DNA of 64,000 nt. Origin: Escherichia coli O127:H6 str. E2348/69. Lineage in GTDB: Bacteria > Pseudomonadota > Gammaproteobacteria > Enterobacterales > Enterobacteriaceae. The position numbers are program-made. The DNA lies in assembly GCF_000026545.1 (NCBI RefSeq), contig NC_011601.1. One strand, 5' to 3'. Shown in pieces: positions 3,001-6,000 of this stretch (positions within the stretch are counted from its first letter, which is position 1; every line of letters starts with the position of its first letter).

Positions 3001-6000
3001 GGATTAAACTGGCCCACGCGATGGGGGCGCATGTGGTGGCATTTACCACTTCTGAGTCAAAACGCGAAGCGGCAAAAGCCCTGGGGGCCGATGAAGTTGT
3101 TAACTCACGCAATGCCGATGAGATGGTGGCTCATGTGAAGAGTTTCGATTTCATTTTGAATACAGTAGCTGCGCCACATAATCTCGACGATTTTACCACC
3201 TTGCTGAAGCGCGATGGCACCATAACGCTGGTTGGTGCGCCTGCGACACCGCATAAATCGCCGGAAGTTTTCAACCTGATCATGAAACGCCGCGCGATAG
3301 CTGGTTCTATGATTGGCGGCATTCCAGAAACTCAGGAGATGCTCGATTTTTGCGCCGAACATGGCATCGTGGCTGATATAGAGATGATTCGGGCCGATCG
3401 AATTAATGAAGCCTATGAGCGAATGCTGCGTGGTGATGTGAAATATCGTTTTGTTATCGATAATCGCACACTAACAGACTGAAAAAATTAATAAACATCC
3501 TGTGGTTTAACATATTAACTTCGCTCCACTTAACTTTTTAGTTAAGGAGAGCGAAATAATATCAAAGTAGTGGTAAACCTATAGCGTAAATTCAGATTGT
3601 TAAATTAACTCCACTACTTTACACGTTAGTTATGAGCGATTTCTGATAGTGTCTGGTTTAATCAGAGCTTTATTATCTGCGACGTTTATTTTTATTTAAG
3701 AGAGCCACCTGCAAGTTGTTATTCCACCAGAGAGTGAATCGCAAAGCAGGTCATCATTTCATCTGTATATCTGTATGCCAAATGGCATTCCCCCTCCTTT
3801 TCCGCCGATATTTTGTTGTGAACGGCGGAGTTTCGCTTAAAAAAGCACCAGCAGTGGTTTTACAGCTATATGGTGTATAAAAAATGTTCTCATACAGATG
3901 TTTTGTGAATGTGTGGGTTGACATTCATATGAAAAAAATCATAATTCCATCATGTTTGTGTGGGGTCTTTTCTGTATCTTACGCATCGCACTCAAGCCTG
4001 ACAGAAAATATGTTGTAAGGCTCATATCAAAAACCGCCATTAGCTCATCAGGAAGAGCAGACGACAACCAGGATTGTTGTATGGTACGGGGTTCGAGGCC
4101 TCGATGGCGGTCCAACTTTTCAAAACTTTTCTGAATCAGATCCCCTTATTATCATCCCTGCAAAGTGGAACATTGCCATTGTTTGGCTATTCAGGACGGG
4201 TCAGACCAATGAAAAAGCCCACACAGGGGAGAGTGGCTGAAATGGGAAGCTAAAGACTCAAGTAAACTTATCGGAAATAAGGACCACGCATTACGGGGGC
4301 TATCATCGCCGATGGTTGGGATTCGGCAAATCAGGTTGATGACGTAGAGAGTAAATTATCTGCTCACCGCTGCGTCACCCCTTCGTAAATCAGGCGTAGC
4401 GCGAATACACCAATAATTGCACCAATAACCCAACTGGCAACGCGTTGCATACGCCCATAAGCACGACGCACTGCGGGCAAAGAAAACGCCTGACTAAGAA
4501 AGACTCGCCAGATAATTGATGCGAGCACAATCCCCGCCCAGGCCATTAATCGTGCCCATGTTGGTGTTTCGGCATGTAATGTTACTGAGAAAATACTGAT
4601 AAAAAATAAAACGGTTTGCGGGTTAGAGAGATCGGTAATTAATCCACGGCGGAAAAAGACATACCAGGGGGCGCTAATCGGTTGTTGTAGTGTGCTCATT
4701 TGCGGTGTTGAGTGGCGGCGCATGCTACTACACCACGCAAACCATAAAAGATAAGCACCGCCGACGATTCTGATAAGCGAAAAAATCTCCTCACACTGCG
4801 TAATTAGCGTTGCAAGACCAAACAAACCCAACCCGGAATAAAATGCATCGCCCAGCGCCACGCCCAGCCCGGTCAACACCCCTGCGCGTCGACCGGAAGC
4901 CAGGCTGGTTTGTACTACCACAAAGAGATTGGCTCCCGGATTAAAAAAAGTAATCACGAACAATCCTACGGTCAGGTAAACGGCGTGCAAAGGATCCATA
5001 GTGATTTCATCCATAAATAAGTGAAGTAACTTCATCATATTTCTACCAAAAATAATCGGGTGCGAGAGAGATCACAAAGTGTCTTATTTCCGGTTACTGG
5101 CGTTTATGCCCTGACTGAACTAATTATTAATCAACCCAATAATGTGGGTGGGTGATAGTGTGATAACAACTCTGGAGCCGTAATATGAAAATAATCTCTA
5201 AAATGTTAGTCGGTGCGTTAGCGTTTGCCGTTACCAATGTCTATGCCGCAGAATTAATGACCAAAGCGGAATTTGAAAAGGTTGCATCGCAATATGAAAA
5301 AATAGGTGATATTTCAACCAGTAATGAAATGTCGACCGCAGATGCGAAAGAAGATTTGATCAAAAAAGCCGATGAAAAAGGGGCTGATGTGTTGGTACTG
5401 ACCTCCGGTCAAACTGACAATAAGATCCACGGCACGGCAAATATTTATAAGAAGAAGTAATTCTGAATCCTATGTAAACATCCCCGATGCGTAAGTTTAT
5501 CGGTGATCATCATCTATTGAAATTTATGCCGGATAAAGCGTTCGCGCTGCATTCGGCAGTTCAGCTTTTCAGCCGCCGCCAGAACGTCGTCCGGCTGATA
5601 CCTAAATAATTCGCCGCGGCTGTTTTATCGCCATTAAATTTCTCCAGTGCCTGTTGCGCTGTCAGCAAGCCTGGAATGGGAGTCTTCGCCGACTCGCGTG
5701 CCAGTTCCGGCAGTAGCAGCTGCAAAAATTGCGGCGTTAAATCCGGCGTCGATTCCACACTTAAAAACAGCGCCAGTCGTTCCATCATATTGCGCAGTTC
5801 ACGAATATTGCCCGGCCAGTCGTAGTGCACCAGCATGGTTTCGCTTGCCTGTAACCCCTGGCGTAATGCGGCAGCAAACGGGGCGGAGAGCGCCGCCAGA
5901 GACACTTTCAAAAAGCTTTCCGCCAGCGGCAGAATATCCGCCACCCGCTCGCGTAGCGGCGGCAGTTGCAGGCGTAAAATACTCAGCCGATAAAACAGGT

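Follow-up and report, generated by a model that had tools for sequence, protein, structure and literature searches.

The 881-bp spacer between yahK and yahN (3483-4363; yahK ends at 3482 and the minus-strand yahN at 4364) of Escherichia coli O127:H6 strain E2348/69 is an ordinary strain-lineage allele, in which yahL is deleted, yahM is broken and xtpA is retained. We studied it within a 64,000-nucleotide stretch of the genome, hereafter the window. As a genome-scan result the region is unremarkable: a common deletion allele, a pseudogene flagged by PGAP and a small gene known in K-12. All of its elements were previously annotated or published, and the sole new lead is an asymmetry in conservation between the RNA and the peptide encoded by xtpA. 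We consider it quite probable that this B2-type allele, labeled after the known B2 strains among the matches (E2348/69, 83972 and ST1193), combines the yahL deletion and a dead yahM with an intact xtpA that carries a tRNA-like RNA, derived from phage argN and under selection. The features are listed in Table 1.

Table 1. Features of the yahK-yahN spacer, in window coordinates
Feature	Position	Strand	Basis
AT-rich stem-loop	3520..3556	+	inverted repeat I1 and folding
Deletion junction	3704..3705	n/a	BLAST of the window against K-12 and boundary sequences
Sigma-70-type promoter (predicted), TTGACA-16 nt-CATAAT	3918..3945	+	11/12 consensus positions
29-codon frame "MKKIIIPSC...", judged a non-gene	3929..4018	+	same frame and stop in K-12; ATG within the promoter
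xtpA ORF, 60 aa, intact	3952..4134	+	59/60 aa identical to K-12 XtpA (b4845)
tRNA-like element within xtpA	4034..4114	+	ARAGORN and minimum-energy fold
yahM pseudogene	4104..4347	+	two 1-bp deletions relative to K-12; "frameshifted" in PGAP
Candidate intrinsic terminator of yahN	4212..4238	-	GC stem and T-run

Spacer composition and the loss of yahL

The initial annotation described this interval as an AT-rich, ORF-poor gap of 880 bp, and both properties are borne out. The spacer contains a single ORF of at least 60 aa (3952-4134), the remainder measuring 25-59 aa, and its G+C content of 40.3%, versus 51.8% for the whole window, puts it within the bottom 2% of windows of 881 nt; for its left 222 bp the value is 30.6%. 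The expectation of yahL and yahM at this place in K-12 is also correct, the counterpart interval carrying yahL (b0326), xtpA (b4845) and yahM (b0327). In E2348/69, yahL is absent and yahM is a frameshifted pseudogene.

BLAST of the window against K-12, from which the deletion coordinates are taken, delimits a lost K-12 segment of 835 bp (L003 2671-3505). It comprises yahL together with the 6 bp before and the 13 bp after the gene and is thus essentially yahL alone; the 816-bp yahL ORF is absent here. The join is blunt, without microhomology or target-site duplication. Of 5426 complete genomes, 1072 match without a break across the junction and in the others the match breaks exactly there; yahL was found in 4015-4076 of the 5426. 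Since a divergent Escherichia (L006, ~85% identical) keeps a syntenic, intact yahL of 271 aa, we read the absence of the gene in E2348/69 as a deletion, and conclude from these alignments that the orphan gene yahL was removed by a blunt 835-bp event.

Conversely, yahL might never have been present in this lineage, the B2-type spacer being ancestral and K-12 representing the insertion of a yahL cassette. The near gene-sized indel, extending from -6 to +13 around yahL, would suit such an insertion, as would the lack of the gene in Escherichia sp. E1V33 and in E. albertii. However, the intact copy of L006 lies at the same site, in the same upstream context, and its divergence (79% aa identity) matches that of its flanks (~85% identical); it is not more similar to E. 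coli than the genome average, contrary to what recent transfer would predict. Moreover, the K-12 boundaries show neither target-site duplication nor repeat, and E1V33 and E. albertii display different, larger rearrangements rather than the 3704|3705 junction. We therefore regard an ancestral absence of yahL as improbable. The deletion has a practical side: for water testing, yahL was proposed as a "conserved signature" qPCR target for E. coli (PMC11057252), but about one in four complete genomes lacks the gene.

Upstream of the junction, the imperfect hairpin noted at about 3520-3560 is real. Located 38 nt past the yahK stop codon, it is formed by two 16-nt arms (3520-3535 and 3540-3555) that are 88% complementary, and its predicted folding energy of -19.6 kcal/mol (z -6.7) was equaled by none of 200 shuffled sequences. 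The hairpin is present in a single copy (median of one place per genome), and the K-12 version is 2 nt longer and folds at -21.3 kcal/mol. We rejected it as an intrinsic terminator: it fails the criterion of a G+C-rich stem followed by a U-run, the terminator scan giving no terminator-like site at this AT-rich stem, whose tail reads AAUAAUAUC. The yahK transcript probably carries this hairpin as a 3' structure.

Text searches for xtpA, yahL and yahM brought up nothing beyond a mention in RegulonDB, a note from Reg-Seq, peaks from genomic SELEX and the paper on qPCR. According to Reg-Seq, a yahM promoter is repressed by IHF; an exact IHF consensus (WATCAANNNNTTR) is absent from the interval. 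Neither NCBIfam nor PHROGs has a family for YahL, XtpA or YahM. The 1.7-kb K-12 interval shows no phage similarity outside the 90 nt of the tRNA-like sequence, so that a "prophage remnant" label for yahL and yahM is unsupported.

The xtpA gene and its overlapping frames

The ORF at 3952-4134 was initially taken for one part of a decayed gene for a small secreted protein; it is instead the intact orthologue of an annotated gene, K-12 xtpA, to which it aligns over its full length. The 183-nt ORF differs from K-12 by 2 nt, resulting in the single amino acid change A21V, and neither the promoter nor the tRNA-like sequence differs at all. The gene also has the same placement between yahK and yahN and the same overlap with the 5' end of yahM. 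The two loci are distinguished by the 835-bp deletion of yahL and the two 1-bp deletions in yahM, both in E2348/69, and by annotation: xtpA is missing from the E2348/69 RefSeq record (NZ_LT827011.1 has no CDS at this position), while other strains carry a "hypothetical protein" there.

The predicted promoter in front of xtpA is the best-scoring site in the interval. Between its -10 hexamer and the A of the xtpA ATG lie 6 nt, and the predicted transcript is therefore leaderless. Transcription would start on the ATG itself, which fits the published description: the title of Muto et al. 2022, as quoted through RegulonDB v12 (PMC10767902), speaks of a "leaderless mRNA including a tRNA-like sequence". 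The same title credits the effect on GcvB in K-12 to the XtpA peptide and not to the RNA (PMC10767902). In a crude test, complementarity between xtpA RNA and GcvB (whole, R1 or R2) was no better than in dinucleotide shuffles, and a role of this RNA as a GcvB sponge is thus unsupported. With yahL deleted and yahM broken, xtpA would be the sole intact transcription unit left in the spacer DNA.

The other part of the supposed secreted-protein gene was a 29-codon frame starting at ATG 3929, with a signal- or lipobox-like N terminus. The frame exists, although it opens upstream, at ATG 3884 (44 aa). Two overlapping frames are indeed found here, and MKKIII looks superficially like the beginning of a signal peptide; one could thus imagine the 29-codon frame and the xtpA ORF as the halves of a single frameshifted gene in decay. 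This is scarcely credible. K-12 has the same two frames with identical stops, so the 29-codon frame does not reflect strain-specific decay, and in K-12 it is the 60-aa frame that is annotated, as xtpA. No lineage among those compared carries a fused frame. As the sequence itself shows, IPSC fails to match the lipobox [LVI][ASTVI][GAS]C, because P occupies position -2; the hydrophobic core spans about 5 residues versus the 7 or more needed for a signal peptide; NCBIfam and PHROGs again give no family match. Lastly, ATG 3929 falls between the -35 and -10 elements in front of xtpA, ahead of the predicted start of transcription; no Shine-Dalgarno sequence precedes this ATG, and E. albertii has lost it.

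Downstream, the uninterrupted 81-codon frame of K-12 yahM (b0327) is not preserved, and translation would stop after 49 codons. The yahM ATG is itself part of the 3' acceptor strand of the tRNA-like element (ATGGCGG). In various lineages and species the frame has been broken repeatedly and independently: by frameshift, by a nonsense mutation in O157:H7 and, in species other than E. coli, by fragmentation. On these comparisons, we take yahM to be a dead reading frame that overlaps the tRNA-like element on its downstream side. Both deletions that break it lie within 4212-4238, a hairpin with a T-run located about 125 nt after the stop codon of the convergent yahN: one shortens the T-run from six to five, the other removes a C from the stem. 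The structure is conserved in K-12, in the loci L004 and L006 and in E. albertii, with a predicted fold of -14.7 kcal/mol in K-12 versus -8.3 kcal/mol here. It probably acts as an intrinsic terminator for yahN. The consensus scan passed it over, its loop being too long and its T-run limited to five residues. Laid over the tRNA-like element and this putative terminator, the yahM ORF looks artefactual or dispensable.

A tRNA-like element of phage ancestry

The 3' half of the 60-codon xtpA ORF contains an 81-nt element that ARAGORN calls "tRNA-Ser(GGA)". Its minimum-energy fold is a cloverleaf, although the element, folded on its own, has a modest z-score (-1.9). Its acceptor stem measures 7 bp, the discriminator is U and CCA is encoded; both the D-arm and the T-arm are canonical, and the residues of the conserved tRNA core (U8, A14, G18, G19, A21 and the T-loop UUCGA) can be read directly in it. 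The anticodon arm is aberrant and enlarged: the loop CAGGAUU has A in place of U at position 33, there are five extra nucleotides, and the arm folds at minimum energy into a 7-bp stem and a 6-nt loop, versus the canonical 5-bp stem and 7-nt loop with a single nucleotide separating the D and anticodon stems. The Rfam tRNA model (RF00005, gathering threshold 29 bits) gave no match in the 106 nt searched, even at E<=10, and Rfam yielded nothing credible elsewhere in the interval. The covariation of nine tRNA-like relatives was uninformative, as 93% of cells pair but not above shuffles.

Homology links the element to the argN and argN-like sequences of phages, at 75-85% identity and with E values down to 1e-17. 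In lambdoid and Stx phages, argN occupies the middle of the ileZ-argN-argO cluster, located between Q and the lysis or stx genes, and we conclude from the sequence likeness that the xtpA element descends from this slot. The argN tRNA-Arg(UCG) of these phages, for instance in VT2-Sakai, has an identical acceptor stem (CCGCCAT/ATGGCGG), discriminator T and CCA, and shares the beginning of the D-arm as well as the T-arm. Degenerate argN-like sequences are carried by phiP27, mEp460 and IncY phage-plasmids; the phiP27 copy is 85% identical over 82 nt, and this type has the AGAG insertion and the GACGACA...TTGTTG arm in common with the xtpA element. Unlike argN, the xtpA element is chromosomal, with yahK and yahN as neighbors and not Q, lysis genes, stx, ileZ or argO, and it lies inside an ORF with a promoter of its own. 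Phage argN, used as a control, scores 54.8 bits on the Rfam model that the xtpA element fails to match. The sequence of its anticodon arm is unique, and this xtpA-type arm was found in none of 14 IMG/VR contigs.

Longer transcripts are known to harbor tRNA-like structures that RNase P excises, as in the mascRNA from MALAT1 and the 3' tRNA-like structures of plant viruses. The xtpA element resembles these in its predicted cloverleaf-like fold, with an acceptor/T-arm stack inside a larger transcript. The analogy is functional only: there is no sequence relationship between them.

Conservation of the RNA and of the peptide

We observed a block of 86 nt (4030-4115) that is unchanged in six sequences from four Escherichia species. 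In the same species yahN is 82-86% identical, and yahN, yahK and yahJ together range over 82-92%; the next-longest invariant run, in the -35 region of the xtpA promoter, measures 14 nt. Within E. coli, the tRNA-like element is exact in 4781 of 5169 genomes, and the two variants inspected both retain the base pair, one of them altering XtpA from R to W. The pattern for the peptide is different. Codon 4 is TAG in L006 and in E. albertii, that is, in two of the three non-coli lineages. In L005, pN/pS for XtpA is ~1, a value based on few substitutions because only three non-coli lineages carry the locus. In the 5' part of xtpA, variable sites are distributed 11/9/6 over the codon positions, so that third positions vary least. 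Together, the codon-4 stops, the pN/pS and the 11/9/6 distribution point to a lack of protein-level constraint on XtpA.

We put forward, tentatively, the hypothesis that the conserved product of this locus is an RNA of ~81 nt, a domesticated derivative of a phage tRNA, and that XtpA is a young, overprinted ORF whose translation would compete with excision of the element. The unit under selection is quite probably the RNA, rather than the XtpA peptide or YahM; on the tentative hypothesis, it would have been kept base for base across Escherichia since before the split of E. coli and E. albertii. The element retains all that a tRNA-shaped top half requires: U8, A14, G18, G19, A21, UUCGA, the 7-bp acceptor stem and the 3' UCCA. 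It is thus likely to be recognized by tRNA-handling factors, for instance RNase P, elbow binders and the enzymes of 3' trimming; recognition by tRNA enzymes is not assured, given that the anticodon arm is unlike that of a tRNA and that the Rfam model is unmatched. Cleavage at the 5' end of the element, for example by RNase P at 4034, would sever the XtpA frame at codon 27/28, and a transcript would then serve either for making XtpA or for releasing the tRNA-like RNA. The peptide would be the younger product, specific to E. coli. Its frame would have opened at codon 4 through a TAG-to-TGG change in the E. coli lineage, and through a separate TAG-to-AAG change in E1V33; by parsimony, TAG would be the ancestral state of this codon.

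Two other explanations for the invariant block must be weighed against this hypothesis. The selected product could be the 60-aa XtpA peptide, acting on GcvB, with the tRNA-like shape an incidental relic of the DNA from which the ORF arose. The title of Muto et al. 2022 (via PMC10767902) is in line with such a role, E2348/69 and K-12 share an intact ORF of almost identical sequence, the geometry of promoter and ATG suits a leaderless mRNA, and Escherichia sp. E1V33 likewise has the frame open. Nevertheless, all 86 nt are kept in spite of a stop at codon 4 in two of the three non-coli species. All three codon positions are invariant within the block, and in the 5' part it is the third positions that vary least. 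The natural R-to-W variant retains the base pair, and XtpA has no recognizable domain. We thus consider the peptide unlikely to be the selected product. Alternatively, the invariance of 4030-4115 could have a cause at the level of DNA, such as an integrase attachment site, very recent horizontal spread among Escherichia species or gene conversion with prophage copies as donors. Transfer RNA genes are common integration sites, and related sequences do circulate on phages and plasmids. But the identity stops within 4 nt and 1 nt of the two ends of the cloverleaf, both flanks diverging in every species, and the loci examined contain no mobile element at this site. The phage copies found all differ at 15% of positions or more, and none of the 14 IMG/VR contigs carries the xtpA-type arm, so they cannot be the donors of conversion. 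A DNA-level cause is for these reasons very improbable.

Our results suggest that the published, peptide-centered view of xtpA is incomplete: the RNA part of this small gene is conserved like a true tRNA gene, whereas its reading frame is not conserved outside E. coli.

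An intact xtpA in an AT-rich spacer

The spacer between yahK and the convergent yahN has a G+C content of 40.3%, compared with 51.8% for the window, which places it in the lowest 2% among equal-sized windows; its leftmost 222 bp fall to 30.6%. An ORF scan found one frame of at least 60 aa between the two genes, and the AT-rich, ORF-poor gap of the initial annotation therefore stands, as does the hairpin placed there at ~3520-3560, which is single copy and stable on folding (dG -19.6 kcal/mol, z -6.7). A terminator scan of the interval did not recognize this hairpin as a canonical terminator. 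Two further perfect inverted repeats were noted, TCCGCCG/CGGCGGA and AAAGTAGTGG/CCACTACTTT; in K-12 the former is shifted, spans 8 bp and, judged by eye in the alignment, has one pair changed on both sides (T-A there versus C-G here). In the annotation record NZ_LT827011.1 the interval lies at 323483-324363 (100% match; the window starts at record position 320001).

The single ORF is an intact xtpA, identical to K-12 XtpA at 59/60 aa. It is annotated in K-12 as "putative transcriptional regulator XtpA," by PGAP in other strains as "hypothetical protein," and not at all in the E2348/69 record. The top promoter-like site of the interval, TTGACA-16-CATAAT (11/12 positions matched), ends 6 nt upstream of its ATG; the title of Muto et al. 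2022, as cited in PMC10767902, describes the xtpA mRNA as leaderless, with a tRNA-like sequence. Previously, this ORF and a 29-codon frame had been read together as a decayed small secreted-protein gene. We reject that reading: the ORF is xtpA, and the 29-codon frame begins within the spacer of the promoter, is unchanged in K-12, and has lost its ATG in E. albertii.

Coordinates of features in the window and in related loci
Feature	Sequence	Coordinates	Remark
Pseudogene fragment, yahJ-yahK spacer	window	2277-2351	75 bp; PGAP 'hypothetical protein, incomplete, missing N-terminus'
yahK-yahN interval	window	3483-4363	881 bp; yahK end 3482; yahN end 4364
Hairpin arms	window	3520-3535 / 3540-3555
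Inverted repeat AAAGTAGTGG/CCACTACTTT	window	3564-3573 / 3611-3620
Inverted repeat TCCGCCG/CGGCGGA	window	3801-3807 / 3823-3829
Promoter-like site	window	3918-3945
29-codon frame, ATG	window	3929
xtpA	window	3952-4134
Invariant block	window	4030-4115	86 nt
tRNA-like element	window	4034-4114 (+)
argN-like sequence	phiP27 (L033)	2501-2582
argN-like sequence	mEp460 (L035)	2501-2588
argN-like sequence	IncY plasmid (L039)	1501-1589
argN-like sequence	L046-L059
Plasmid relative of element	Enterobacter hormaechei IncC plasmid (L040)	1502-1576
Plasmid relative of element	Cedecea plasmid (L041)	1503-1576

The tRNA-like element and its relatives

Within xtpA, ARAGORN called a "tRNA-Ser(GGA)" whose minimum-energy fold is a cloverleaf. 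Read directly, this element has a 7-bp acceptor stem, discriminator U and an encoded CCA, together with U8, A14, G18, G19, A21, and the T-loop UUCGAGG; its anticodon region is 5 nt overlong, with A at position 33. The Rfam tRNA model gave no match to it even at E<=10, and phage argN, taken as a control, scored 54.8 bits. By its predicted fold the element is tRNA-like; it is not a tRNA.

Phage similarity is confined to this ~90-nt part of the interval. The element aligns with argN, which lies in the middle of ileZ-argN-argO between Q and stx in VT2-Sakai. Its nearest relative (85%) is a degenerate argN-like sequence that phiP27, mEp460, and an IncY phage-plasmid carry, without annotation, at the corresponding position; ARAGORN calls none of these sequences. 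Relatives with other anticodons follow Q in Yersinia phage YeP1 and phage Evi, and occur also in Enterobacter and Cedecea plasmids. The 14 IMG/VR contigs examined all carry the phiP27 type, and the xtpA type is found in none of them. These similarities indicate phage ancestry of the element.

In many lambdoid phages this degenerate argN-like sequence takes the place of argN between ileZ and argO. It is near-identical over the IMG/VR contigs, is marked as a tRNA neither by ARAGORN nor in the records, and could be a conserved phage element other than a tRNA. One plasmid relative adjoins blaSED and is called tRNA-Gln(UUG) by ARAGORN, and ~145 Salmonella conjugative plasmids match at 60%-80% identity.

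Conservation of RNA and peptide

We aligned the window with K-12, a MAG, Escherichia sp. E1V33, a divergent Escherichia (L006), and E. albertii. The block enclosing the element is invariant in all six sequences, the next-longest invariant run being 14 nt, and in the same species the neighboring genes are 82%-86% (yahN), 88% (yahK), and 92%-96% (yahJ) identical. An exact copy of the block is present in 4781 of 5169 E. coli genomes, and both inspected variants retain pairing: T4101C, in O157:H7, turns a G.U into a G-C pair, and C4108T, in strain 94-3024, turns G-C into G.U and changes XtpA R to W. T4101C strengthens the T-stem, and the O157:H7 TT12A lineage also has a stop at yahM codon 12.

As for the peptide, XtpA codon 4 is TAG in L006 and E. 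albertii, and the open frame would by parsimony be the derived state. E1V33 gives pN/pS ~1.1 over the 26 codons upstream of the block, on few substitutions, and variable sites are distributed 11/9/6 by codon position. The lack of any sign of constraint on the frame is, with so few substitutions, suggestive but not conclusive. The conservation pattern points to selection on the RNA. The tRNA-shaped RNA would then be the selected product of the locus; tRNA-processing enzymes would handle it, and such handling would compete with XtpA translation. No pairing with GcvB emerged from a crude search.

yahL, yahM, and the yahN 3' end

The K-12 spacer measures 1732 bp and holds yahL (816 bp), xtpA (b4845, 183 bp), and yahM (246 bp); yahL and yahM had been expected there, and comparison with the K-12 annotation confirmed both. 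BLAST against the K-12 locus (L003) matched window 2404-3704 to 1351-2670 and window 3705-4698 to 3506-4501. The difference is a single 835-bp segment, yahL (L003 2677-3492, absent from the window at 3704|3705) with 6 bp upstream and 13 bp downstream, and inspection of the boundary sequences found neither repeat nor microhomology at its ends. Of 5426 complete E. coli genomes, 1072 match an 80-nt probe spanning the junction without interruption, and in the others the match splits exactly at the junction. The yahL segment was found in 4015-4076 of these genomes and is missing from ~1350, including the 1072 with the clean deletion junction. Strains without yahL include E2348/69, 83972, and AZ162, the first two known to belong to phylogroup B2. 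The interval is unmatched in ~250 complete E. coli genomes.

For polarity, species-representative genomes with YahN were scanned, yielding four informative Escherichia loci. L006 has the order yahK-yahL-xtpA-yahM fragments-yahN, with flanks ~85% identical, an intact yahL (271 aa, 79% identical), and unchanged upstream context; the order is yahK-xtpA-yahN in E1V33 and yahJ-xtpA-yahM fragments-yahN in E. albertii, and MOD1-EC7003 (L029) keeps the yahL tail alone. In Citrobacter, Salmonella, and Edwardsiella the scan found yahN present and yahL, xtpA, and yahM all absent. Since yahL is syntenic in L006, the comparison indicates that the gene is older than E. coli and that its absence in E2348/69 is a deletion. 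In MOD1-EC7003, a 48-codon C-terminal yahL fragment (6670-6900) comes straight after yahN, and xtpA, the tRNA-like element, and yahM are missing; this is a different rearrangement of the spacer. Genomic SELEX reported strong RpoH, RpoF, and RpoE holoenzyme binding within K-12 yahL (old coordinate 343660; PMC5493296).

At the yahK 5' end (2438-2484), TGTTG (5 bp) is deleted after ~2451 relative to K-12 and the near-identical strain VTB97074v, so that the usual ATG at 2438 is out of frame. PGAP gives 332 aa from an internal Met at 2484, where 349 aa would be usual; in E2348/69 the yahK product may be shortened at its N terminus, or the gene inactivated.

yahM is broken here: two 1-bp deletions, in the A-run 4212-4216 and the G-run 4235-4236, frameshift it and cut it to 49 codons. 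The 3' acceptor strand of the tRNA-like element includes the yahM ATG (4104). Both deletions fall within a minus-strand hairpin and T-run, AGCCCAC...GTGGGCTTTTTT, which lies ~125 nt past the yahN stop, is kept in K-12, L006, and E. albertii, and weakens in predicted fold from -14.7 to -8.3 kcal/mol with the deletions; it is probably the terminator of yahN. The exact lesion allele occurs in 144 genomes (70-nt probe), with 665 more at 95%-99% identity, and many of the sampled records in that range have 1 nt more, as a single deletion would give. yahM is also frameshifted in one yahL-positive strain, carries CAG to TAG at codon 12 (equivalent to window 4137) in the O157:H7 representative TT12A (L044), where PGAP annotates a shorter 'hypothetical protein' instead, and is fragmented in other species. 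These lesions indicate decay, and yahM is unlikely to be a conserved protein gene.

The ~125 nt from the yahN stop to the putative terminator (4239-4363, minus strand) are well conserved in E. coli, L006, and E. albertii despite the broken yahM frame, and could be a structured yahN 3' UTR or a UTR-derived RNA. A Reg-Seq preprint reports that IHF represses a yahM promoter.

All parts of the locus had been annotated or published beforehand, and its novelty is therefore low. For water testing, yahL has been put forward as a 'conserved signature' qPCR target of E. coli/Shigella (PMC11057252), and lineages without the gene would escape such assays. The asymmetry in conservation between RNA and peptide is a modest, testable lead.
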